Of a stretch of 64,000 bases of DNA, positions 4,973-52,725 are shown one piece after another (within the stretch, counting starts at the first letter, position 1; each line of letters opens with the position of its first letter). Made by a program: the position numbers and the translations under genes. The stretch is taken from assembly GCA_051294905.1 (NCBI GenBank), contig CM119372.1:310001-374000 (forward strand), in the 5' to 3' direction. Under the pieces are notes generated by a model, which saw only the letters and a program-made list of their open reading frames with translations, was not told where the DNA came from and did no database searches. The DNA comes from Botryllus schlosseri. Its lineage: Eukaryota.

Positions 4973-7660
4973 AGGTCAACTGCATGTCGGAAAAGACTTT
5001 TGCTTATTTCGTAGATTATGTGGTTAGGAATAATAAAAAAATAATGAAAAGGAAAAATGCGTGATAGTTTTCAAGTAATTTAAATTACAAATCGAGATTC
5101 CGAAAAACGGACCCGAAATCATCCAGCCGTGAAATGACGTCAAGTAGTTGACACAACAAAAATTCTTGTTATTCCTGTTGGCTGTTAGGTGGGATTCGTT
5201 GCATAGATTTGCTGTGGATTTGAGTCATTGAGTGAGATCATGAAGGCTGTGAAGGAGGTGATTCATAGAGTCAGATGTTATGTCGCGTATGGTTGCTCCA
5301 ATACGCAATATGCCGTGCCTACAATGTCTTTACATCGCTGCCAAAATCCATCCGTATACCGTCAGGTGACCGGACGCCGCGACCAAAAGTGCGGACTTAA
5401 TAGACAACCAGAGGCAGAGACATTTTCAATGACGTATCCGAGATACGAAACGTGCAATAAAGTTGACTGCTGACCACGGAAACTCTCACACTTAGTGCCG
5501 ACGTACTGCAGCAGTGCCGTTCATACTTTATTTTCACGCACCAGTGAAATTGTGGTAATGGCAGAGGATCGCACTTCTAAAGCTATGCAAAGTGTCCAAA
5601 ATCGGTTAGTGAAAATGTACTGTGTTAGCTGGTATTGTAAGAGTGTAACTAACCGTTTATAGTAGCATTGACTGTGGTACGGTAGTCATCAAAGTAGTTA
5701 TTGTTTACACTCATGTGCATGTGCAATCATCATCATCATCATCATTGGTTTATAAGCAATTTTATCAGTTCAATACACCACAAAAAATGCGATACAATGA
5801 AAAGTCAGGAAGATGTCTAAGCAACAAGGAGTAGTCTATGGAAGAACTAGGGCGGCATGTCATGGGAAGCGAGATCGATAGATCAGTCGTGGTCCGGTAA
5901 TCTTGAGGATGGACTGTATATAGGCAAATAACTGAAATAAGTATGCCTTGAAAAACTTTGAGTAGAAGTGTACGTAGTCTGAAATAAAGCCACTTAAAAA
6001 TCAATCAAGAAAGAAGATGTATAAAGGCATTAGTTAACAGGAGTCTGTAACCTGCTGACTTCATGATCTATAATGGTTATGTCGCAGAGCTCATTTTATT
6101 GGAAGAGTTGCTATTACTTTTGAAAATAAACTTCTGTTTGTGTACATGTGTAGTCATATAATCATATTAGTTACTTAAGTTACTGAATGAAGACTGTCAG
6201 ATATCAGTGACTAAATCTCTCAAGATATCGACAGCTCAGTAAAAGATTAAAACGTATCACTATCACCATAGCAGTCCAAAAGTTGGGTAGGATGCAGTTG
6301 GAAATCCTTCATTTTTATGATACTTCGGAACAGCATTTGGTACACTGCCTTTGATTCGACTTTATTATAAAAATCTGCAATGTTTTTACACCTGCTTTAG
6401 ATTCCTGCAATGAAGAAGTCGACGCATGTATTCAAGCAAGACCAGATACGGCGGAGTCGACCAAGTCAATTGCGATGGCTTCCACATTCAACTAGCGGCA
6501 TCGTGAAAATTAGTTGAAGCCATTGCTGGACAAAAGAAGCTATTGTTGGACACAAAACTACATTTCTCTCCCTGACACAGTAGTACTGTTGATGGATTGG
6601 TTGTTGCATTTATTATTTTCAATACAATTATTCCTTCGCGAAGCATTGCAAAATTGAAATCCTTTGAAAATACTAGATGTGAATTTTGATCGGATGTACA
6701 GACAGGATTTCTCGTTCGTTTGTGTTGCAGAATCCCAATGGCCAGCAAACAAAACTTCGTACACAGTATTTCTCAGCTTCCTGAAAAGCATAATTGTTGT
6801 GTAACTGACGGGTAATTACTTGGCACCCGACTCAACGTTTCATGTGAATGAGACTCATTCGCTCATGCATCGAACTAGATGGTATAATTATATGACAATA
6901 TTCCTGATGATATCTATAGTGAGATATCTCTCTGATTGAGCTACTGATTGAAATCCTGGTAATGCTGTGATGCACTAATAATTCGTTAGTTGCTCTCCCA
7001 CTAATAGTTTGCATAAGTTGGCAATAACCTCCATCCTCTATCCTGTAATTGATAATACCAAGATTAATAACTGAAAAGAGGTAGGGTACTCCACCAAATT
7101 ACACATACCGGTGTATTTCATTGGGTATAGACAAGCGGCTTCAGCTGAACAAGCTAGGCTGATCATACTATATATTACTAACCTCCTTAGGTTATTCATC
7201 AATAATCATACTCAGACGACCACTCGTTTTCGGAGCAGTAAGGAGTTCCACTGATACGGGATTGAGCTCATCAACACTTGATACGTGTTCACTGTTCAGT
7301 TTAAACATTACTTTCGTAAGCAAGGGCAAAATGCATACTTACATTCGTCATCTGAGTAATCGCACTCACTTGGTGAATCCATTACAAGCGAAACCTCCGC
7401 GATAACTAACTAATATAATCGCCCTGCTACTGAAAAAGCAACAGCCCTATAGCATACATCCGCAGCGGCCAGAAGAGATGTCAACTACATGACGTCACAA
7501 TGAACATTTCGCTTTTTCTGTAAACATACCAATATTGGGACTTTCAGTCCAAATTACGGCAATTTCCGATTAGTTTGAAATACGGAAAGTCGGCAATTTC
7601 GGTATGAAAAAAAATTCTGAACATGATGAGGCGAAGTTGTTTATAAGATGCAGTTGACCT
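4973..7660 (+). mobile_element. Kolobok transposon, internally deleted (THAP remnant on +, KolX/P2X7-ballast-like remnant on -)
   Basis: TTAA flanks at 4969-4972 and 7661-7664, with a 13-bp TIR AGGTCAACTGCAT. THAP-like RCYVAYGCSN...SLHR at ~5270-5340. Minus-strand CITALPGFQSV (~6945-6975) and RKLRNTVY...SCLYIRSKF..IFKGF (~6650-6790). Confidence 0.75.
5727..5915 (-). mobile_element. 3' end fragment of the L2/Crack-type LINE, inserted in the Kolobok element
   Basis: Matches the 3' UTR and (ATG)n tail of the copy at 35968-37110, with an internal deletion. Confidence 0.8.
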
Positions 7661-39164: not shown

Positions 39165-40512
39165 AGATGCTTGCGCAGCATCTTCCGTGATCTTTCCATG
39201 CCCCAGTCACTTATGTTATGGAGCGATGATCTTTTGGTCGATTATATGATATTTGGACGACGTGGACCACTGGACGCGCGTGTGTTGTACTTGTGCGCTT
39301 TTGATTCGGAAGTAAAGAAAGTCATTGAAATATTCGGGGCAACGACCGCAGTGAAACTGATACATAAACTTGGCGATCTCTAGTTTCCGCATATCTTCTA
39401 TGTTTAGGACGCCGAATCTCTTCAGCAGCGACTTATTGGATGGGCAGCACTATCACTCACTATCAAAAGTGATATACAGTGCCTCCTTCTTCGATTTTCA
39501 CACGCTGTGCGCTGCGGGATATATTACTACTTTGACTGCCAACAATCCTAAATATAGGATTTTACTCAATCCCATAAAGTGCCAGCGATCCTATATTTAG
39601 GATATTTTTGAAATGAGTACAGAAATGTCTGGAATTGGTTCTATCCCCGGATTACGGCTGTATCCGAGGCTAGTGAATAGGCTTGTTGTCATAAACCACC
39701 ATTTTCGTTGCCGGAAGTATTTTTTTTAAATCACATCCGTATACAATAGGTCAACCTTTTTTTGGTTTGACCACTAGGTGGCTTTTCATAAAATGAGCAG
39801 CAAAAAAATGGAAATATTTTTATAATTCCTTGATGTTGAAAAAAAATTTTTTTTTCATAAGTTGCGCAGGGTTCGCACTTATCAGCACGCCCGATTCCAG
39901 CCAAATATCCAACTAGTCGAAAATTCATTGTTCGCTGGCGTTTACTGGCAATTTCCATGATAGGCCTTGGCAGCTAAAGTGTTGCGAAACATTTTGTTAA
40001 AAATAACCTTAGTAAGTGTGACGGCAGTGTTTTAAATAATGGGAAATTGGCGATCAAAAAGTACGCGCAATTCATTTTAATGAGACATAATAACCCACTA
40101 CTTTCATGAAAACAGTAAGCCGTTTGTGTCGAGTCAGAGGCTCGGAGTCTCCAGTTCGAAGGCCTAAATCTCCTGTTCCGATACCGTAATTCCGAGGCTA
40201 CTATCGTCTTAGTTCTTCAAAGACCACTGGAAATGACGTGTTGGTTTCAATATGAGTTATGAGCAGGGCCATAATAGCACTTCGCCAGGCCCCCTCCAAA
40301 ACGCCTCCCATATGTTGACGAACCAAACTTCTTGGGGGCTTCGCCCCTCAGGCTGTTCACTTATTACCGCTACTTACTTATCGTCTACATTGGGGGCCGT
40401 TTAGTGGTTCAACTTTTCTCGCTCAACGCTTCGGCATCATGCTTGCTGGACCGTGACGACGACCTATGACAGACGGAGTCTTCACAACAGGAAAGCGCTC
40501 ACGCGTGACGCC

Positions 40513-40641
40513 TTACGTCATCAAAGAAGGTTCTGGAAGGCTACAACACGTGCTCGTTGCGTAATCTCGCTCGGCCGACTTTTCTCTCTTCTCCCATCCC
40601 ACTAACGGTAAAGAAGGCTTCCTTTTCTCTTCTTTCTCTCC
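40513..40641 (+). promoter_or_regulatory. HSP70 promoter: heat-shock element, CRE-like site and pyrimidine (TOP-like) tracts
   Basis: aGAAggTTCtgGAAg at 40525-40539 is a perfect 3-unit HSE. TTACGTCA at 40513-40520. Pyrimidine runs at 40579-40600 and 40619-40641. A possible 5' UTR intron runs 40748-40945. Confidence 0.7.
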
Positions 40642-40950
40642 GCCGCAGACTTCCAGACCTGCCGCCTCGTGCTTGTCAGTTTCCTGACGAAGGTTCCTCG
40701 GATCGGGCGCGCTCAACATTCGGCGAAAACTCAACATTCGGACTCAGGTCAGTTGCTTTCCTACGACTTCTAAGCGGCTGTCAAGCGGCGAGTCTGCACA
40801 CACTGTCGCCGTTTCGTGGCCGCACGTGGATTGAATCGAATCTCGCGACAGCAAAACCTCGGACAGCTTTGATAACGCTCCGTTAGCAGCGATTTCAAAC
40901 TAGACGCGCGGTCACAATCCGTCTCACACGACGTCAACTTTCTAGAAATC

Positions 40951-43900
40951 ATGTCGGCGATTGGAATTGATCTTGGAACGACGTACTCCTGCGTTGGAGT
41001 CTTCCAGCATGGAAAAGTGAGTCTCTCTAATATATGGGTCGTTTATTACAAATGTATGCGTCCGATTACTGTGGGTTAGGCGTTCGTGCAATAAGTGACC
41101 GTATTGACGCGCTCCTCTGTGTTTTCAAAAGTATGAGCATCCTATGAACTGTGTGGTACAAGTTTGCAACGTGCTTGATAACCCGCTGTGACTCAGAATG
41201 CTGAAAAGTGTAGCAGTGCTAAAAATGACTTGAAATCACAGCCTCCGAATTCTTGAAAATGTATATACCCGACAAATAACCAACTACTTGACTCGCTGCT
41301 TTCGAGCAGCCGTACATGGACTTTGCATGAACCGAATTTGTCAAAAAACGCTAATTACGTATTGTGCTCCTGGCTCATGCCAATTACCTGTTCTGATTTA
41401 TAAGACCACGGACCATGATGTTTCTTCATAAGAACATCCGTCCTATAAATAGAAACAAAAACTGATGCGTCAAAAACTGTACCAATAAGTGCAATATGTC
41501 TTTAGAGAAGTGTTCATTTAGTCTCAGTTTCAAGGCCAAATAATCTTGACAATTCAGTATGGTCTTGTCAAGCTGCATCAGTCTCAATTTTAAGACTGAA
41601 TATTCTTGACAATTCAATATGGTCTTTAAAAGTTTTGATCAGTCTAAATTTTTAGATAGTAATTTTGGCAAAGACCTCATTTCATCAGTGAGACGTAATT
41701 TACTGACAATGAGACCAAATCTTCTTTGTCTTGAACTTGAAACAAAATGGCAAATTTTTTTTGTAGTGTAATCGTCTTATAGATTGTTCAAGAATGTCAA
41801 TCTACAGTGTCATAAATTATTGTGACTCAGAATGAGGTATAGACATCCTAGCACTTTATTGCAGTGTAGGTCACATGCGCAAAGAGCACCATATTGCTAT
41901 ATGATTCGTGTAACTCGTGGCCACGTCATTTCTATCTCATAAAATGTAGGGAGCTTGTATAAGTTTCATTGCATGTATTGCAGGATTCCGCGCATATGTT
42001 CAATGTGATATGAGCGGCCAGACAGCATGCTAGAATGAAGTTACCCCAAAACCAATGTCCCAGGGTTGACTTTGTGTCTGTGGCACTGATTGGGTTGCAA
42101 CATGCGAGTTGCACGAACTGCTGGATTTTTTTACCTGTAAATTAGTGCTTAAGAGACTTCTCTTTGAAAACTCGAGCGAGAAAACCTTACAAAATACGGA
42201 AAAAAATAAGACAACACTGAACTTACTCCCTATCAGCATTTTCAAAGACTCATTCCTTGGAAGAAATTTTGAGTTGGTTTTGCGGGTAATTAAAGCTGTG
42301 GGTGCTGAACATTGGGCTGGAAGTGGGTTTTGATTATTTTATCCCAATATTAGGGTTCGCACCGCACCAAGATCTATGTGGTTGACCATCAACTAACTAT
42401 AGATTTTGTACTGTTCAAGAGTAGGGGCATGTTGACTGAACTGCGTCAATGCGTTGACAGTTATGATATGGATCTTGTTTGTAGGTTGAAATCATTGCCA
42501 ACGACCAGGGCAACCGAACCACTCCATCCTACGTTGCTTTCACCGACACGGAACGGCTGATCGGTGACGCTGCCAAGAACCAGGTCGCCATGAATCCCAG
42601 CAACACGGTATTTGGTGGGTATCTCATTTGTGGCTAATTCCATTGTTCCTCATAATTGTCTACAAGCTACACAAGTTCTTCAAATTTTCAGTAGATGTAG
42701 AATTTTGTCTAAGTACCAGTGATGAAAAAATACTGCATTTTTAAATATGTCGTCACTACATGCCGTAGCCTGAGAAAAAACCTGAAAAATCAATCTGTGC
42801 TGCGGTGATGGTAGAGAACCGGTTGAAATTTTGGTTTGAAAGATCTTTGTTCTTATTTTGGATTTGTAATGAACTGATAACTAGGACAAGATTTTCTTGC
42901 AGTCGTCTAATCTGTGGAAAGTTGAATCAATTTTTCACAAAAGTTACATTCATTTTTCACAAAAAAAATTTCACAAAAAAAATAGCATTTATATACAAGT
43001 TCCCTACAAGTTGCCCTACTAATAACAGTGTATGTAATAAATGATCAGGATTGACGTTGCATTGTTTATAAAGTTAAGGCAACATGAAATTTCACATCTG
43101 CGAAATGTCGAGGAAAAAATTATTTTTGCAAATCGTATATTCTACATACGACATTTACAAAACAGACATACGCTCATTCTGGTGCGCTAAAGCTGTTGTA
43201 CTCCTTCCCATCTTCATGACTATTACGTGTCGGTGGATTAAACGCAGCTGATATCAAAGTCCTGTCGGCACGCGGGTGGTTTTTCTAGCCACTAACGCTA
43301 CTTGTATAGGACACATCCTGTTTCGATAACTCGTTTTCTGTTGGATGAGGTAAGGACATACGTGAAAATGGAATGTGGTTCCGTTCAGATGCGAAACGAC
43401 TGATTGGCCGCAAATTTGACGACGCCACTGTGAAAAGTGACATGAAGCATTGGCCGTTCGATGTTGTCAGCGACGGTGGAAAGCCAAAAGTATCGGTGAG
43501 CTGTTAAAAACGTTCACAATAGTCACTGTTTGTATTTTAGTACAAGTAGTTATGTTAGAAATATTAATCAAGTAGAAGCACTTACTTGAGAGTTGAGGTG
43601 GTCGGAAGTAGTTGTTGGTATACTTCACCTGAACAAATTTGCTCTCGATTGCAGTCTTGCTGGTAAAGCGTGGTCTTACAATTAAGGGGACTAGCAACCC
43701 AAAAACCTAAATTTCGGATGGTTACCCCCATCAGCAGTTGCTAGATGTCGCTATGCTATAAACGACAAACAAAAAATTTTTGTTCTACCCTGGAGATTGT
43801 GAATTTTTTTGTATTTCCCGGACAGAAAATGAACCGAGACGGGGAATGCAAAATCTCGGATATTGTGAAGCCCTTTTTCAGATCTAACGCCTTCTTTAGG

Positions 43901-46900
43901 AAGTACTAGGACAGTGCTGTGCTATGCTAAAATTTGAAGGATTACATGCAACCCACCTAGGACAAATTCCATTTCGAAATTCAAAAAAATCCCAATTTTT
44001 GTTACAAATTTGCAGAAAGTTTACTGCGACGTTCTGTACCTCTTGACATTGTAGACCTATGACTGAAAACTTTTAGCATAGCACACGTCTGAATCTCAGC
44101 TTTTCAAAAAACCTTGAGTGACGCATCTACGACAAATATTTCAAACCAATTTTTGGTTTGCCGTGATGCAGCTGAACAAAATTTTACAATTGAGAAAACG
44201 ACGATCAAACACGTGAAACGTAAAAAGTTGAACAAGTGTTAACGATGTAATGATAAGAATGAGTGTCAGAATGCTAGAATGCCAACTGACAACAATCTAA
44301 CAAATTTATACCCGGAGATAATATAGGTAGATATATTTTACAACTGTCAAACCATATATTTTATAGAGTCATCGGACGAAACATGCGATCTTTTGGTTGG
44401 AACTAGAAAAAAAAAATTATTGAAGGAAAATAAAATCAAAATTTTTGAAGTTTTTAGTTGTTGTTTGGGTGAAAAATGTTCATAAGGTGACAGCAGAGAT
44501 ACAATGTTAATATTTCCTACCAGGAAAAAAAAAATCAAAAATTTTGATTTCTTGGGTTGCTAGTCCCCTTAAGACTGAATTAGCTTTTCAAGACCATATC
44601 GAATTGTCACGGTCATTCGGTCTTGAAAATCAGACCAATAAAATGCATTTTTATAGGACAATATTGTGCTTATTAGGACAGTTTCGGATTCCTTTTTTTG
44701 CGAATTTTGCAGTTTTATGAGCTGCATGCACCTTGATAGCGTAATCTAGTGAATGTCTTGTAAACTCCTTAGCAAAGTAATATCACAGCACTGCGCATTC
44801 AGGACTCTCTCTCTCATGCTTCCCCTTCGCTCAGAACCTCCCAAAGCACTGCTACTATTTTCGTTTTATTTAGGTCTTGCTTTCGAGACGGGAAGTACTT
44901 AGTAGACTGATTGGTCTTGAGACTTTTTTGCTGAGACATGAACACCAAATTTGATTGGTTTTTTTTGGTGGTGTACATAGTTGTCGAGTCAAGAATAATC
45001 AACTTGGGTTTGTGTGATGATTCTTGCCGCCCCAGTCTGATGCTTTGTGACTGATCCGGTTTTGCTGATGAACCCACATCAAATTCAAGCTTGGCTTGCA
45101 TGTCGACATTCTGATGTGGCATGAAGTAGAGAAAGCAGAAGTGATTTCTCTTAGTTGTTTATTCGAAAGTCGTGATTTCCTAGTTAGAAGTAGTAGTTTG
45201 CAATTTAGGTAATCTTCAATTACCAATTACTGGGTGATGTAGAAGTCAGAAAGTATATGATGAAAAAAACCGAGGAATTCTTCAAGTAAAGTATTTACAG
45301 CCGAGCTTACTTCCAAAAGGAGTTAAAACACAACTCTGCATAGGGTGGTCAGGAACAAGTACTTATACTTTCCAAAGAACTTGATAAAATCTTCTATTTG
45401 CATGGTAATTTTCAGTTCAAAGTTATTTAGAACATTGATATTTTTACTTGTAAATTGCTGCCTCATACTTCAGTATTCACTGACGGTGTTATTTTGCTTG
45501 AGTGATGAAAGACTATTTTACTGACTGCCCCTGGTCACTGCGACGTACGATTTTGATCTTTTCTCATTTGTTGCGCTCGCCTCTGCAGGTCGAGTACAAA
45601 GGAGACAAGAAGACCTTCTTCCCGGAGGAAATCAGCTCCATGGTGCTCACCAAGATGAAGGAAACCGCCGAGTCTTATCTCGGAAAAAAAATCGACAACG
45701 CGGTCATCACGGTACCGGCTTACTTCAACGATTCCCAACGTCAGGCCACCAAAGACGCGGGAACCATCGCAGGATTGAACGTGCTGCGTATCATCAACGA
45801 ACCGACGGCCGCGGCTATCGCTTATGGTCTTGACAAAAAGGTAGTAGAATATAGTCGTGCTAGTGGAAAATATGCACGAGTTAAGATGGCAGGCAGACAT
45901 GTTTGTGTAATAGTGGGCTTTCAAAGCACAACTAGAACTAGTAACTCCTTCAGACTGCAGGACCGAAGCCAAAATGAAAGTCCTGACTTGAAAATTTTGA
46001 AACTAGAAACTAGAACCCCTCCCTACAAAACTGGAAACCAGAACCACTTGTTTCTAGTATGCTTATAGTTTCGAAACTAAAAGTTCTAACTAACTGAAAG
46101 TTCTTGAAAACCAGAATTTAAACTCAGACTAAAACTATGCTTTGATAAGAACTTAGTCGAGTAGCACTCACGGCGGAGCAATCTTGACTTCATTAGATAA
46201 TGATTTAGTTGGTTTGTGTGATGATTCTTGCCGCCACAGTCTGATGCTTTATGACTGATTCGGTTTTGCTGATAAACCCAGATCAAATTCAAGGTTTCCG
46301 TGAGGCATAGCTTGCAAACTATCATATAGAGCTTTTTCTTCTAGGTTGGTGCAGAAAGAAATGTTCTGATCTTTGATCTGGGCGGCGGTACTTTTGATGT
46401 CAGCGTCCTCGTCATCGAGGACGGAATCTTTGAAGTCAAGTCTACCGCTGGAGACACGCATTTGGGAGGTAATACATGGCTTGATTCGCTGCTCATGTCC
46501 TAAGGAAAATCGCGATTTCAAATCTGAATCTGTATTTTTTTGTATCGCGTTCATGTTGAATTTGGTTTACGTCGCATATTCAGTTGTATATTGTGTATTG
46601 CATATTCAGTTGTTCGACGCAGGGTTATCTGGGGGGTTGAACTCCCTCGGCTCTTGCCCGTGTGGTGCTGGAGCGTCCTCTTGTGGCGTATATTCTGAGC
46701 CTCGGCGTCTGACATTGATCCGGAACCCCGAATTTTCGGTGCGGTTTTGGATTTTCGCATATTCCTTCAACTTCCTGTAGTCACTAGCGGGCCATAACCA
46801 GGGAGAAAAGCCATGTGACAAACATCAAAATTCCACATGATATTGACTGACAATTGTAAATCAGAAAATTTCTAATCGTGAATAAAATCTCTAATGCGAT

Positions 46901-49900
46901 GTCGTTTGTGGCTCGTAGGTGAGGACTTTGACAATCGTCTGGTGAATCACTTCTCCAAAGAGTTCCAGAGAAAACACAAGAAGAGCCTAGAATCGAACAA
47001 GAGGGCTCTGCGTCGTCTGCGAACCGCTTGCGAACGCGCAAAGAGAACTCTATCGTCTTCCTCGCAAGCCAGGTTAGCTCGTCTTTTGATATGTTGAGTT
47101 GCCGCGTGTGATATTACATGGGTTCATACAAGATTGAATCTTAAAATTACGACTATTCTGTTGACAACAAATGATATGGAAAGTACCTAGTTGCTGAGAA
47201 CGTGGATATAATATTTCTACTGTAATATAATGTGTAATAATTTAGTTTATGATTGATATATTTGAGTTGCAATTGCGCACTCCTTAGATCCACTTCTTGC
47301 GAGCTAACCCATGAAACCTCAGTTTCGTCGAAGGAGGCTGGGCTTCGAGCTTGTTGCTGAGGTTTCGACGTTCTGTCGTCATCTCCTTAACACCCATGCT
47401 GCCCGGTCCCCTTGAATCTGGGGGGGTGGGGGCGGTTCGCACCAACGCTTTGTTGCATCGTAAGAAGTGCATGAGTCAAATGTGCGCCAGATAGATTTTC
47501 TGCGATATAGTCCTCAACTTACTGATCGCTGGGTTTGAGGCGGGTCGGAGAAAGACATTGAATTCTATGAGAATTACCGTATGCATTCAAAAAAGGATAT
47601 ATTCACGATCGTGTTTGAAAGTATGTGATGAAGATTTAAAAAGGGTTTTGTATATTAACAATATTATCACCAAATATGGTAGTTCACCGATTCCTGTTTC
47701 TTTCTGGCTACGTGATTAAATCGTTGGGTTATCCACCGATCAAGGATAATCCCAGAATTATCAAAGAAACTGAAATAACTCCGCTTCCACTGCTTGGAAT
47801 TGAGTCAAATTTGTTTTGCATAGTTTTTGAACACAGCGCAACAATTTCATAGGGTAAGCAGAAAAATTTGAATATTCTTTTTTGAATTCTTATGCAAAAT
47901 CTGTACGAAACTGTACATTTTCCAGGCAATCTAACGTTATAATGACGTAGCCAGTAAGATAACGGAAAAACGGGTTATTTTTGAACAGCCCTAATATACA
48001 TTATTCGATCATATATCGAGGTCTTTTTGCCTCGCGCAGTCCTCATTCAAAATTTTAACAGGTGGTTTTCTGTTACAGCATCGAGATCGATTCCCTGTAT
48101 GAAGGCATCGACTTTTACACCTCGATCACTCGGGCGCGTTTCGAGGAAATGTGTTCCGACCTGTTCCGTGGCACGTTGGACCCCGTCGAGAAATCTCTCC
48201 GGGACGCCAAGATGGACAAGGGGAAGGTGAGGTCGCCAGGACTTCGATGAAAAACTTAATTTTAATATATGGATTATGATACAGAACATAGTTTACTTTG
48301 AACAGAGCGTTCATTGTGACTATCGTGAAGGTCATAATGTTCAAAAGCCGTAGGCTACGCTTCAACAAGAACTTGAACTACTCAGTAATTATTCTACTAA
48401 AGTAGCATTCATATGACGGTGCAATTTGACTCCACTTGAAAATAATTTATGGGTTCGTGTAATGATTTTTCCGCCCCAGTCTGATGCTTGCGACTGAATT
48501 CGGTTTTACTGATGAACCCAGATTAAATCCAAGGTTTCTGTTTGGCATTGCCCACGTCTGCAATGTAGCATGAAGTGAAGAAACCGAATAGTATTTTATA
48601 TGGGTCGAAATGGTGAACTACATTGCACTACTGGAGTGGAGTGATATAGTCGAGATCACTTGTGCAAACATAGTACGGTCATCCGTTAGAATATGACAGA
48701 ATAGTCGAAATAAGCGATTGCAAATCATCCCATTGTAACAATGGCAACTATAATCTAGTGAAGTCTACACGCATGTAAAATGGAAGCATGGCGGGTGCCA
48801 CTTTTTTTACAGACTCTTTGAAGACTTGATGGCCCGTTACTGTTGTTTACCTTATAAAAGTTAAGAAAGTTATTTCATTTCGAAGATTGATTTATACAGC
48901 AGTATTCAGTTTTCGATCTTGCATTATCGATTGATATTTCTTGCAGATCCACGACATTGTCCTGGTTGGCGGCTCCACCCGTATCCCAAAAATTCAGAAG
49001 CTCCTGAAAGATTTCTTCAACAGTAAAGAGCTCAACAAATCCATCAACCCAGACGAGGCCGTGGCCTACGGTGCTGCGGTCCAGGCTGCCATTCTCTCTG
49101 GAGACAAATCTGAAGAGGTATGAATTCGGTGTTTCGGATAATCTTGTCTGGGGGAAATGAAATATGACTACACCTGCTGCTAGTATTGCACGATTGCCCG
49201 TGTCAGGGTCAGACAAAATTATTTATTTCATTTCGCATATTCAGTTGTGTACCTCGTTATTTTTCGACGCAGGGTTATCTGGGGGGTTGAACTCCCTCAG
49301 CTCTTGCCCGTGTGGTGCTGGAGCGTCCTCTTGTGGCGTATATTCTGAGCCGCGGCGTCTGACATCGATCTGAAACCCCGAATTTTTCGGTGCGGTTTTT
49401 GATTTTCGCATATTCCTTCAACTTCCTGTAGTCACTAGCGGACCATTACCAGGGAGAAAAGCCATGCGACAAACATGAGAACGGAGTGTCGTTATATCTT
49501 ATTTGTGGAATGATTCTATACGTATCTAATTCTACATGTGAACTGTACAGTGCAGAATCTTGAAGCGAGATTTTGAAAACAACTTATCCGTCTGTAATCC
49601 TGTTTCAGGTTCAAGATCTTCTTCTGTTGGACGTGGCCCCCCTGTCTCTTGGTATCGAGACTGCGGGTGGGGTGATGACGGCGCTCATCAAGAGGAACAC
49701 GACCATCCCTACCAAGCAACAGCAGGTCTTCACCACCTATTCGGACAACCAACCCGGCGTACTCATTCAGGTACTGTCAAAAGACCATTTCGCTCGTCCT
49801 GGTATGTCTTGCAAACTATGAGACTGAAAATGCACTTCTGATACTCCCATTTTGCTCTTGCACTCGAGTAGTTGTGTTATCGATGGACATGACAGTGCCA

Positions 49901-52309
49901 TTTTTGACTACTCGAGTAGGTATTGCGTACTTGACAAAATTGCACAGATGCATCCAGCAGGTACTACTTGCTTTTCAAAACTCGGAACGATAACTACGAA
50001 AATTGAAAATAACTTGACAAGTTTCCTGAACTGGATTGTTGCTTAGTGCCCCTCAGGTGCAACTATCATGGCAACTAGCAATTATTTCTTGTCAGGTGTA
50101 CGAAGGCGAGCGTGCCATGACCAAGGACAACAACATCCTGGGAAAATTTGAGCTGTCTGGCATCCCGCCCGCTCCCCGCGGCGTCCCACAGATCGAGGTC
50201 TGCTTCGACATTGACGCCAACGGCATCCTGAACGTGTCTGCCCAGGACAAGAGCACGGGACGCGAGAACAAGATTACAATCACAAACGACAAGGGACGCT
50301 TGTCCAAGGAGGAGATTGAGAAGATGGTGGGTGGACTATCTTGTTCAAGTGGTAATCTGGGCTGGGCAAAATGATTCGAGCACTCTCGATCTGAATAGTC
50401 TTTATTCCAATTTAGAATGTGCTATCAAATTGATTTATCAGGTTAATTCTCAAACTTCTCTCCCACAACTGAAATCATTGAAACCTAGATTGTATCGAAG
50501 CATCCAAAACAACATAACTCTAAAAGCTATGCTTGTTAAGTGAATGTGACTTGTGCCGTAAAACGGGTACATTTTGTCGAAAATATGTTCTAATTCTGAT
50601 AATCCTATACTCGTTCAGACACAGGTTCGCAATCTCGATTGTCAAGTAATGCTGACAATTTCCACTATGGTTAAAGCATTGATTTATCGAGGCTCTGTTT
50701 GTGCCTGGAAAACTCGAGCAGAGTTGTAAAATCACATCTCTAGAAAGTAATGCAGGTAGATGAATTCTACATAAGTCCCACATAAAGTAATCTTACCGAT
50801 AACATTGGTTATGACAAAGTGCATTCGCAACTACCTCATTAGGGGGTGTTCTGAAATGGAAGTTTTTTCTCGAGTTGTACTGGCAACTTGATAGAATTGT
50901 TAGGGTACCTAATTTGAGCCTACATACCAAATTTTGTTCCAAACAGTAGCCGCATTGCCACAGAAGAAAGTTACATTTAAAAAATGATAAAAAAAAATTT
51001 GCAACCTGTTCTGTTCTTGTATTTTGCCCAGCCCTCATGAAAATCTGTGTTGATGAAAATTTCTAATCTCCGAATCACTCATGTTGACAGACTAGAGTCC
51101 CTGAACAGAGGATGTGCACACGATGTTAGTTTTGTTTAGTGTCGAAAAACTTGAATTTGTGTGGTTGGCAGGTTAACGATGCCGAGAAATACAAGGAGGA
51201 CGACGAGAAGCAAAAAGAGAGAATCGGGGCCAAGAACGCGCTCGAGTCTTACTCGTACAACGTGAAACAGTCCGTGGAAGACGAGAAGTTGAAGGACAAG
51301 ATCTCCGATGAAGACAAGAAGGTCATTCTCGACAAGTGCAACGAGACCATCACCTGGCTCGACAACAACCAGGTTTGTTTGTTTGTTTTTTGTTTGCTTG
51401 CTTAACCACAACGCGTTGATGATCAAAACAATCCAACTCTGAACAAGATGTCGACATATCTGCAATTCTGAGCGTACATGATAGAGCCTGACCGATTTTC
51501 TGTTGGCCATTTGAGGGAAAAAAAGTGCGTCTTGATCTAAACTCTTTCCCGTGATAAATGGCTCACACCTTATTGGCCGGGCTCTATTGGTAGATATGTA
51601 TTGAGTCTGTTCCTCAGAGTTGTAATCCGGATTCCTGGCAGTTTGAATTTGTTTTCAGACTGCAGAGAAAGACGAATTCGAACACCAACAAAAGGAGCTG
51701 GAAAGCGTCTGCAACCCAATCATGACGAAACTGTATCAGGCTGCTGGAGGTGCGGGTGGCATGCCAGGCGGTATGCCTGGTGGAATGCCAGGTAAATGAA
51801 CCCAGGACAATTTTCTGCTCGTTTGAACTAAATTAGAACGACCGAATCTAGGTAGACAGATTCCAGGTATCGAATCCTGATATCATCCAGAATCAGGTTA
51901 AAAGAATAAGAGCTAGTTGTTCGAAATCCTTGAAAGACATTCAATGTCTGTGGCACACTTGACTGGAGTAATTCTTAACTCAATTGATTGACAGTTATCA
52001 AAAGAACAATTCTATCATCTGCGGATTTGACATGAAGTGCGCTTTTAATTTTCCTGTATTTGTTTTGAATGCTGTTGAAAAAGGTTTTTCTATCTAATTG
52101 ATTGAGTTTGTAAACACTGGAAACTTGTGTAAAGCTTGTTACTTTTCCACTCATCTTCTATTATGATTCAGCCAATTTATCTGCTTTAAAATTACATTTC
52201 CTTTTTCTTCATTTTAGGGGGTATGCCTGGTGGATTCCCCGGGGCCGGTCAACAGCCCCAACAAGACAACAGCTCCGCTGGTGGCCCCACGATTGAAGAA
52301 GTTGACTAA
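40951..52309 (+). CDS. HSP70: Cytosolic heat shock 70 kDa (cognate-like) protein; 13 coding exons, 656 aa
   Basis: Exons 40951-41016, 42485-42614, 43389-43495, 45589-45840, 46345-46468, 46919-47072, 48079-48226, 48947-49117, 49609-49770, 50096-50326, 51172-51372, 51659-51791 and 52218-52309 total 1971 nt, all GT-AG. Signatures [20 protein letters not shown] and [16 protein letters not shown] repeats and [14 protein letters not shown] at 52421. Confidence 0.97.
41971..42105 (+). ncRNA. H/ACA snoRNA candidate in HSP70 intron 1 (18S guides)
   Basis: Two hairpins, hinge AGAATGA, terminal ACA+3 nt. The 5' pocket GGATT/CCAGACA fits 18S UGUCUGG[U]UAAUUC. The 3' pocket AAACCAA/CTGATT fits 18S AAUCAG[U]NNUGGUU. 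Confidence 0.7.
43191..43318 (+). ncRNA. H/ACA snoRNA candidate in HSP70 intron 2 (18S guides)
   Basis: AGCTG/CAGCT stem, H box ATATCA at 43251, GTCCT/AGGAC stem and ACA at 43313-43315. Both pockets lie 14 nt from their boxes and fit 18S UAAU[U]GGAAUGAGUAC and GCAAGUC[U]GGUGCC with one mismatch each. Confidence 0.75.
43686..44568. mobile_element. Non-autonomous Kolobok-type element in HSP70 intron 3
   Basis: TTAA|GGGGACTAGCAACCCAA ... TTGGGTTGCTAGTCCCC|TTAA. Confidence 0.85.
45006..45075 (+). ncRNA. SNORD31: C/D snoRNA U31/SNORD31-like, copy 1 (intron 3)
   Basis: GGGTT/AACCC stem, box C GTGATGA, guide CCGCCCCAGT before D' CTGA (antisense to 28S ACUGGGGCGG, P-loop), box D at 45065-45068. Confidence 0.88.
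46211..46278 (+). ncRNA. SNORD31: C/D snoRNA U31-like, copy 2 (intron 4; variant guide)
   Basis: Paralogous to copy 1 with boxes intact; the guide reads CCGCCACAGT. Confidence 0.75.
46613..46827 (+). ncRNA. SNORA73: U17/SNORA73/snR30 H/ACA snoRNA, copy 1 (intron 5)
   Basis: About 215 nt. m1-like ATATTCCTT (46759-46767) and m2-like AAGCCAT (46808-46814) sit on the TCGCAT/ATGTGA stem, with terminal ACA. The 5' hairpin resembles vertebrate U17. Confidence 0.85.
47275..47560 (+). ncRNA. SNORA53: SNORA53-like long H/ACA RNA (intron 6)
   Basis: TCCTTAGATCCAC...GTGCATGAGTCA pocket, as I recall for SNORA53, complementary to 28S UGACUC/UUAAGG. GCGCAC/GTGCGC basal stem, hinge AGATAGA, a second hairpin and ACA at 47555-47557. 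Confidence 0.8.
48451..48519 (+). ncRNA. SNORD31: C/D snoRNA U31-like, copy 3 (intron 7; variant box C)
   Basis: GGGTTC/GAACCC stem, intact guide CCGCCCCAGT-CTGA; box C reads GTAATGA. Confidence 0.78.
49263..49478 (+). ncRNA. SNORA73: U17/SNORA73/snR30 H/ACA snoRNA, copy 2 (intron 8)
   Basis: Near-identical to copy 1 while most flanking intron sequence differs. Perfect TCGCAT/ATGCGA stem and ACA at 49473-49475. Confidence 0.85.
50618..50739 (+). ncRNA. Weak H/ACA snoRNA candidate (intron 10)
   Basis: Hairpin, AAAGCA (H box), hairpin (GATTT/AAATC), then ACA+3. No convincing target was identified. Confidence 0.35.
51045..51108 (+). ncRNA. C/D snoRNA with a SNORD52/snR78-type guide (intron 10)
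   Basis: CTGT/ACAG stem, TGATGA at 51051, D' CCGA, and guide CAGACTAGAGTC before box D CTGA (51101), antisense to 28S GACUCUAGUCUG. Confidence 0.82.
51411..51475 (+). ncRNA. Dual-guide C/D snoRNA (28S and 5.8S) in intron 11
   Basis: ACGC/GCGT stem and TGATGA. D' guide AACAATCCAAC is antisense to 28S GUUGGAUUGUU; D guide TCTGCAATT is antisense to 5.8S AAUUGCAG. Confidence 0.82.
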
Positions 52310-52725
52310 ACGTTTGGTCAATTGTTTCCATCTCTGTGTGGGCTGTTGTTGATTGAATTTGTATACTTTTTGTACCCCAATTGGTCGAAGAATCTCCCTC
52401 TCCAGCTACTGGAGACGTCTGAATAAAACGCGCAAAATAATACGTCTGGTTTTGTGAGGAAAGACTTGTCAGTAGAAAGCGTTAGGGCCGTGGTTTCACA
52501 TTTTTAGTAGCGCTCTCCTTGCAGTGGGCCATGGCGAACTTCTAATACCCCTGTGCTAGTGCACTACCATAGTAATTCGGAAACGGAGACCCTATACAAA
52601 TCACGGGTTTATAATATCGGACATCATCGGACTGGTCATTTGAAGATCTTGATCAGTACAATACATTTCTAGTCCTAGACGGCTGAAAGACCCCTTCCGG
52701 CCTTCATCGTCAACATTCCAGGTAT

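Follow-up and report, generated by a model that had tools for sequence, protein, structure and literature searches.

An intron-rich HSP70 gene of the tunicate Botryllus schlosseri as a probable host of ten candidate small nucleolar RNAs, with a decayed duplicate that may be a non-coding host

The DNA analysed here is a window of 64,000 nucleotides (nt) from the tunicate Botryllus schlosseri (GCA_051294905.1, contig CM119372.1, positions 310,001 to 374,000), and carries a gene for the heat-shock protein HSP70 whose introns contain candidate small nucleolar RNAs (snoRNAs). The spliced frame is open over 13 coding exons and specifies 657 amino acids (aa), with GGMP repeats and an EEVD C-terminus; all 12 coding introns are of the GT-AG type, and exon 4 matches Pfam HSP70. 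A genome search with exon 4 gave 12 matches, the three closest paralogs lying in intronless frames of 626-632 aa, and for this reason the window gene would represent the intron-rich, cognate-type cytosolic HSP70. Four RNA runs were aligned to positions 40500-52600. Among the 15 RNA joints listed (there are 50 further ones) are those of 11 of the 12 coding introns plus one intron in the 5' untranslated region (5'UTR), while splicing of intron 11, which lies at a skipped repeat, is seen only as 448 loose ends with exon-11 letters. In agreement with a tunicate source, the genome contains two GH6 matches above cut-off, GH6 being specific to tunicates among animals, and the 18S start has an ascidian look.

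We identified ten snoRNA candidates in this gene, all on the sense strand; coding introns 1-8, 10, and 11 (I1 to I8, I10, and I11) contain a single candidate apiece (Table 1). These include two copies of U17, three of U31, a SNORA53-like RNA, a double-guide SNORA15-like H/ACA RNA, two C/D guides whose names derive solely from their targets, and a weak H/ACA orphan. Nine of the ten are well supported, the I2 RNA being the weakest. An earlier sequence-only reading of this DNA had proposed about 11 snoRNAs in the same ten of 12 introns, in a dense host of both classes lacking U14. The introns, the common strand, the presence of C/D and H/ACA members, and the absence of SNORD14 all stand, with one snoRNA per intron, while the count falls to ten. 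No further candidate was supported: the C-box element at 42719-42785 in I2, complementary to 18S over 10 nt, has neither a terminal stem nor a canonical D or D' box in register. We also set aside an additional C box of I3 (45502), which has no target, and a minus-strand match to snoZ107 (50930-51045) that overlaps a dispersed repeat and was taken as chance.

Table 1. Features of the HSP70 gene and of related loci. Positions are those of the window unless another locus is named.
Feature	Position	Strand	Remarks
HSP70 gene	40951..52309	+	
HSP70 coding exons 1-5	40951-41016, 42485-42614, 43389-43495, 45589-45840, 46345-46468	+	
HSP70 coding exons 6-9	46919-47072, 48079-48226, 48947-49117, 49609-49770	+	
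HSP70 coding exons 10-13	50096-50326, 51172-51372, 51659-51791, 52218-52309	+	
5'UTR intron, 198 nt	40748..40945	+	GT..AG; RNA joint; no snoRNA found in it
SNORA15-like H/ACA RNA, intron 1	41971..42102	+	27.8 bits, E 0.11; predicted pockets for 18S U1328 (8+5 base pairs, bp) and 18S U110 (6+7 bp)
H/ACA candidate, intron 2	43191..43315	+	hairpin, H box, hairpin, ACA; fold z -2.26; SNORA30/37 17.3 bits, E 1.7
U31 (SNORD31), intron 3	45008..45074	+	39.9 bits; predicted guide for 28S G2941, 12-nt duplex
U31 copy, intron 4	46212..46278	+	35.9 bits; one guide mismatch; duplex score 9.0 vs 11.5 for I3
U17/SNORA73, intron 5	46614..46827	+	61.2 bits, E 5e-13; m1 and m2 present
SNORA53-like long H/ACA RNA, intron 6	47274..47559	+	32.7 bits, E 1.5e-4; fold z -2.87
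U31, intron 7	48452..48518	+	33.7 bits; predicted guide for 28S G2941, 10-nt duplex
U17/SNORA73, intron 8	49264..49478	+	67 bits, E 1e-14; 95% identical to I5 copy
C/D RNA, intron 10	51045..51109	+	predicted D-box guide for 28S U2720, 10-nt duplex in register; guide and boxes kept in C9 copy
Double-guide C/D RNA, intron 11	51411..51476	+	predicted D' guide for 28S G3239 (11 nt) and D guide for 5.8S G74 (9 nt), both in register
Heat-shock-element-like motif, then pyrimidine tract resembling the start of a 5' terminal oligopyrimidine (5'TOP) transcript	40520..40600	+	by eye; start site unmapped
Dispersed repeat like a miniature inverted-repeat transposable element (MITE), intron 3	43682..44572	.	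~890 bp; 33-nt terminal inverted repeats; ~39 other genome places; not a snoRNA
Second MITE-like dispersed repeat, intron 6	47691..48017	.	two inverted repeats; many genome matches
C9 locus	C9:9191182-9192933 (L028:8182-9933)		one strand, HSP70 gene order
U14 in an HSP90 intron, with diverged paralog in the next intron	L030:5929-6022 and 5468-5532	-	predicted guide for 18S C424
Second U14	L011:1501-1596		57.6 bits; no evident host; a transfer RNA- or short interspersed element-like stretch seems to precede (by eye)

A relaxed Rfam scan (E<=10, region 40500-52400) gave 22 matches, six of them with E<0.001; all six are intronic and in sense orientation, and correspond to SNORA73 (I8 and I5), SNORD31 (I3, I4, and I7), and SNORA53 (I6). 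Weak matches were obtained for SNORA15 in I1 and for SNORD96 in I11 (E 0.87). Of the family names proposed earlier, U17 and U31 hold and SNORA53 is likely, all at scores below the gathering thresholds; the match to SNORD96 is weak, and SNORD52 and SNORD69 had no Rfam match.

Guides were checked against the ribosomal DNA of the species itself, whose numbering is used for all ribosomal RNA (rRNA) sites, and fall in register with it. Because 10-nt stretches complementary to rRNA abound by themselves on either strand, boxes, stem, and register were demanded as well. A C/D rule combining C box, D box, stem, and rRNA antisense, with 500 dinucleotide shuffles as control, found five sites in the 12 introns (I3, I4, I7, I10, and I11) against a shuffle mean of 0.038 and maximum of 2, a contrast that is somewhat inflated because the rule was set after the candidates had been seen. 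The same rule gave no site on the minus strand and one in the remaining 52 kb of the window.

The claim that U17 resides in HSP70 is borne out by m1 and m2 motifs that fit rm1 and rm2 of 18S rRNA. Both window copies carry the terminal ACA, and two further copies lie at a decayed HSP70 duplicate elsewhere in the genome (the C9 locus, see below), bringing the SNORA73 matches found genome-wide to four. The m1 motif is intact in all four and pairs with 18S rm1 at 818-823. The m2 motif reads AAGCCAU in all four, whereas it is AAACCAU in the 14 of 14 species tabulated in PMC7601244, a source that also describes variation in the U17 motifs as matched by compensatory 18S changes. Here m2 pairs at five of six positions with 18S rm2 (852-857), a C of rm2 facing the changed G of m2 as a compensatory pair. 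The distance between rm1 at 818 and rm2 at 852 is 34 nt (18S 818-857 corresponds to L009:2036-2075), as is reported for yeast (PMC2664660), and eight of 66 U17 pairs show double-sided changes among the four copies.

The three U31 RNAs of the window have C and D boxes, a terminal stem, and the SNORD31 family guide before D'. A second guide was not accepted, because its top-ranking target is not the same from copy to copy. Downstream of the I3 and I7 copies, at a distance of ~45-55 nt, a 21-nt element recurs with 86% identity (45114-45134 and 48563-48583); it may mark either the extent of a duplicated U31 unit or a processing signal.

The target of the I10 RNA, 28S U2720, is what we take to be the U52/SNORD52 site. 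The SNORD52 model had no match to this RNA at E<=10 or at E<=5, and it would be SNORD52-like by target site only, family homology not having been found. Likewise, 28S G3239 and 5.8S G74, the predicted targets of I11, are presumably SNORD69-type and SNORD96-type sites, respectively, an equation with human sites that we assume. The I11 RNA scored 24.1 bits against the SNORD96 model (cut-off 43), with only its 3' half aligned, and the SNORD69 model did not match it; a pattern search of the genome returned one other match, lacking a D' box after the guide. Human SNORD69 is described as the 28S G4464 guide hosted in GNL3 (PMC6984369).

Among the H/ACA RNAs, the one in I1 matches SNORA15 (RF00398) weakly, its score facing a cut-off of 47, and a canonical ANANNA was not found at its hinge; both of its pockets are retained in the C9 copy. 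The I6 RNA aligns with SNORA53 (RF00563) over its full length, at 32.7 bits against a cut-off of 38, and has a predicted 6+6 pocket for 28S U2565, 16 nt from the H box, that was recognised by eye and checked for spacing. Genome DNA searches found no paralog of either the I2 or the I6 RNA, and both appear to be single-copy; a genome-wide search with the SNORA53 model was uninformative, as it missed even the window copy.

As to expression, run X20, an RNA library labelled metagenome from which 13 records were aligned, provided seven listed contigs, two of them intronic: 49274-49443 inside the I8 U17, whose allele it matches, and 47288-47486 inside the I6 SNORA53-like RNA. Nine of the ten wholly intronic bins were empty. 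These contigs are suggestive of RNAs for the two longest elements only.

Taken together, these data argue that the intron-rich cognate cytosolic HSP70 of this tunicate is a multi-snoRNA host, and that its C9 duplicate is probably a non-coding one, a reading to which we give a probability of roughly 85%. Several observations weigh against it. Scored at the gathering thresholds, Rfam found no match anywhere in the 64 kb window: all three U31 copies stay under the SNORD31 (RF00089) threshold of 40 bits, and the I5 and I8 U17, although full-length, under the 74 bits of SNORA73 (RF00045). Position 6 of the H box is a non-canonical G in both U17 copies while the C9 copies are canonical, and one G-A mismatch is left in the m2/rm2 pairing, adjoining the compensated position. 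The mismatched guide of the I4 U31 may be impaired, no convincing rRNA target was found for the I2 RNA (best pocket score 9.5), and the automated pocket search missed the I6 pocket seen by eye. Concerning RNA, no discrete molecule ends were seen at snoRNA borders in the two libraries of raw reads, both apparently poly(A)-primed, and the X20 contigs, which have neither strand nor ends, gave no signal at the I1, I2, and I3 elements, unlike the two long RNAs.

The failure at gathering score, together with the abundance of 10-nt rRNA complements, would fit the notion that box-like motifs have simply arisen by chance in introns of such length. This is nonetheless very improbable in view of E-values down to 1e-14, of five C/D sites where shuffles average 0.038, and of the conservation of the snoRNA elements in paralogs while their flanks are not conserved. 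We consider it refuted for nine of the ten elements; it persists for the I2 candidate.

The matches at the C9 locus lie on one strand and follow HSP70 gene order: the I1 RNA (75%), two U17, the beginning of exon 10, and then the I10 RNA, which continues into the first part of exon 11. What is left of exon 10 can be aligned over ~145 nt, is frameshifted, and outscores all of 1000 shuffles; the beginning of exon 11 outscores 60 of 60. A tblastn search with the HSP70 protein gave no collinear match at the locus, and its exons are without coding potential. In contrast to these largely erased exons, the SNORA15-like RNA, the two U17, and the U2720 guide keep all their guide elements intact, at 75-82% overall identity. 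The C9 U17 are 85% identical to each other and 77-81% to the parental ones, and with 75 and 91 bits they pass the gathering score. Acceptor sites occur where exons 2, 9, 10, 11, and 12 would begin, and are followed by AATAAA. A C/D-box-like element at L028:9484-9544, in the stretch equivalent to intron 9, has no rRNA target and is not U14-like; a U14 remnant in the C9 stretch matching I9 was also rejected (33 of 500 shuffles). Whole-gene DNA searches were swamped by repeats, so that the number of decayed copies is a lower bound.

From these features, C9 is probably a collapsed, frameshifted HSP70 duplicate working as a nascent non-coding snoRNA host, with transcription predicted. Its losses would comprise roughly exons 3-7, the reading frame, and the I11 RNA, whereas a U17 unit would have been doubled in cis and four snoRNAs kept under selection; if they are under selection, then they should be expressed. 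Not all tests favour an HSP70 origin along the whole locus. When alignments were unconstrained, only two of 26 exon halves beat all shuffles; with positions constrained, the beginnings of exons 2, 9, and 12 fall on their acceptors without significance (102, 122, and 548 of 1000 shuffles), and the corresponding values are 73, 55, and 30 of 1000 for the 3' ends of exons 8, 10, and 11, respectively, and 42 of 1000 for the I11 RNA. Such noise-level remnants, and the fact that no homology to the promoter or first exon was found, would also suit a silent pseudogene fragment, or snoRNAs made inside an unrelated transcript. Given four snoRNAs with every guide element preserved amid erased and frameshifted exons, and acceptors aligned with five exon starts ahead of an AATAAA, we regard this alternative as rather unlikely. 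Whether C9 goes as far as being a transcribed, spliced non-coding host born from the HSP70 duplicate, and now the main source of essential U17 while the parental H boxes drift, is in our estimate an even bet.

The two better-scoring U17 copies on C9 (91 and 75 bits) run counter to the earlier view of HSP70 as the home of this essential RNA. U31 is dispersed too: a genome search gave six matches, three of them in introns of an hnRNP A/B-like gene (L039:1034-4547) with two RNA-recognition motifs and a Gly-rich tail, and two of these three pass the Rfam cut-off. Neither U17 nor U31 is confined to HSP70. One might go further and view several of its copies as decaying spares, with the working U17 and U31 supplied by C9 and the hnRNP-like gene: the C9 U17 outscore those of the window (67 and 61 bits) and have canonical H boxes, most hnRNP-hosted U31 pass where the window copies fail, and the I4 guide is mismatched. 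On the other hand, the HSP70 U17 retain m1, m2, ACA, and stems, with covariation, an RNA contig matches the I8 allele, and the I3 and I7 U31 guides are in register, which makes this scenario doubtful.

We found no HSP70 homology in the hnRNP-like U31 host, and its derivation from HSP70 was rejected. The 3' flank of the I7 U31 resembles the next exon of that gene (2 of 1000 shuffles), and U31 may have been imported from it with a piece of exon; since this is one of 18 tests and was spotted by eye, it is only a lead.

Concerning U14, no SNORD14 match was found by Rfam in the HSP70 gene, and the species' own U14 aligns to none of 13 introns above shuffles. Two U14 were found in the genome. One is housed in an HSP90 intron, accompanied in the next intron by a diverged paralog whose D guide has come to match 28S C2141 (10 nt), and the other has no evident host (Table 1). 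In vertebrates, it is HSPA8/hsc70 that hosts U14 (PMC7277114; PMC2653536), in introns 5, 6, and 8 in the case of chicken hsc70 (PMC2653536).

The sequence-only reading had also suggested that the snoRNAs could explain the high intron number. We compared the gene with 80 metagenome HSP70 loci, ten of them with introns, whose taxa are unknown and none of which is known to be a tunicate; junctions were picked automatically, and at least one (locus L057) is implausible. Five of the 12 introns (I2, I4, I8, I9, and I11) match HSP70 introns of other organisms in position and phase. None of the window's snoRNA families was found by Rfam in ten other HSP70 loci (eight intron-bearing plus two); U14 is present in one of these, and a weak SNORA65 (32.2 bits, E 0.055; L106:240-347) occurs at the I8 position in another. 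Introns without a snoRNA persist (I9, I12, and that of the 5'UTR), and repeats account for much of the length of I3 and I6. The proposal therefore fails, as five introns stand at positions common to other HSP70 genes, in which the same snoRNAs were not found. At least these five were not created by snoRNAs, which may help to retain introns.

It is possible, if somewhat less than evenly probable, that the arrangement of snoRNAs is an old one, of tunicates or chordates, and was not assembled by this lineage, which would agree with the preferred reading in everything except age. The C9 duplicate is old, its exon decay being near complete, and the occupancy of I1, of I10, and by U17 therefore predates the C9 duplication. 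Conversely, the families are missing from the ten other HSP70 loci scanned, a small sample of unknown taxa, and the 95% identity of the I5 and I8 U17 implies that at least some spread or conversion was recent.

In our preferred reading of HSP70 as a multi-snoRNA host, a broadly expressed gene, some of whose introns are old, would probably have been colonised by snoRNAs that duplicated in cis (to three U31 and two U17), with U14 housed in HSP90 instead. A later duplicate, C9, would have lost most exons and its frame while keeping the SNORA15-like RNA, two U17, and the U2720 guide. Following the known pathway, debranching of the intron lariats would precede their trimming, down to the RNAs that C/D or H/ACA proteins shield. 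Methylation of 28S G2941, U2720, and G3239 and 5.8S G74 is predicted for the C/D RNAs, and pseudouridylation of 18S U1328, 18S U110, and 28S U2565 for the H/ACA RNAs, whereas U17 would pair with 18S rm1/rm2 during processing.

Upstream of the coding region lies a motif that we take to be a heat-shock element, followed by a presumable 5'TOP start (Table 1). Besides the MITE-like repeats of I3 and I6, shorter pieces of dispersed repeats occur at 41518-41632 and 50837-51016.

Intronic housekeeping snoRNAs, HSP70 as a host, and host switching are already established, and on its own the dense cluster counts as a good find for annotation, not as a surprise. As described for vertebrate HSPA8/hsc70 (PMC2653536; PMC7277114), a cognate cytosolic HSP70 holds one snoRNA per hosting intron, and I9 and I11 match intron positions in other animal-type HSP70 loci. 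It differs in carrying ten RNAs that belong to both classes and represent about seven kinds, as opposed to the three U14 of the vertebrate gene, U14 being here in HSP90. Human U17HG, a non-coding gene, is reported to hold two U17 copies, and a Xenopus ribosomal protein gene six (PMC7601244; PMC1687206). Here too U17 lies in several introns by intragenic duplication, and hosts switch between species; unlike those cases, the hosts are HSP70 and a decayed locus derived from it, and m2 departs from that of the tabulated species with a matching 18S change. Both cis-duplication and host switching of snoRNAs have been described (PMC1687206; PMC2653536), as has a 'constrained drift' among broadly expressed hosts, whereby unrelated snoRNAs come to occupy orthologous introns (PMC3511168). 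With its ancient housekeeping host, the present gene shows no difference in principle from the latter account and offers a dense single-gene case in an under-annotated phylum. Further background is given in PMC2655684 and PMC2817437. The literature we searched contained no report of a tunicate HSP70 snoRNA cluster, although earlier U17 or SNORA53 surveys or tunicate annotations may already include such hosts; a U17 pattern scan of metagenomes gave no match.

The C9 locus resembles UHG/SNHG1, GAS5, and U17HG as portrayed in PMC7277114, with short non-coding exons around conserved intronic snoRNAs. It is unlike them in that the coding parent is recognisable and active in the same genome. It also recalls the long non-coding RNA fossils of protein-coding genes (PMC5577775), in which a coding gene decays to a non-coding locus. 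In the main text of that work the terms snoRNA, SNHG, and host gene do not occur, whereas retention of C9 would plausibly be driven by intronic snoRNAs after duplication.

The cluster is real and unusually dense for a known host type, and the decayed duplicate is more interesting and less proven. In ascidians, 12-24 snoRNA families have been reported with a warning of low sensitivity, and tunicate sets are thought to be heavily reduced, failed detection being a stated doubt (PMC5006418). Ten candidates in one gene, all below Rfam cut-offs, support the detection explanation, and may serve as seeds for better snoRNA models. The U17 m2/18S rm2 change represents a natural compensatory pair in a motif invariant across 14 tabulated species. 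Finally, the C9 duplicate allows the origin of non-coding snoRNA hosts from coding ones to be tested directly and, if our interpretation is true, would be a datable origin of an SNHG/U17HG-type gene with its parent still alive.

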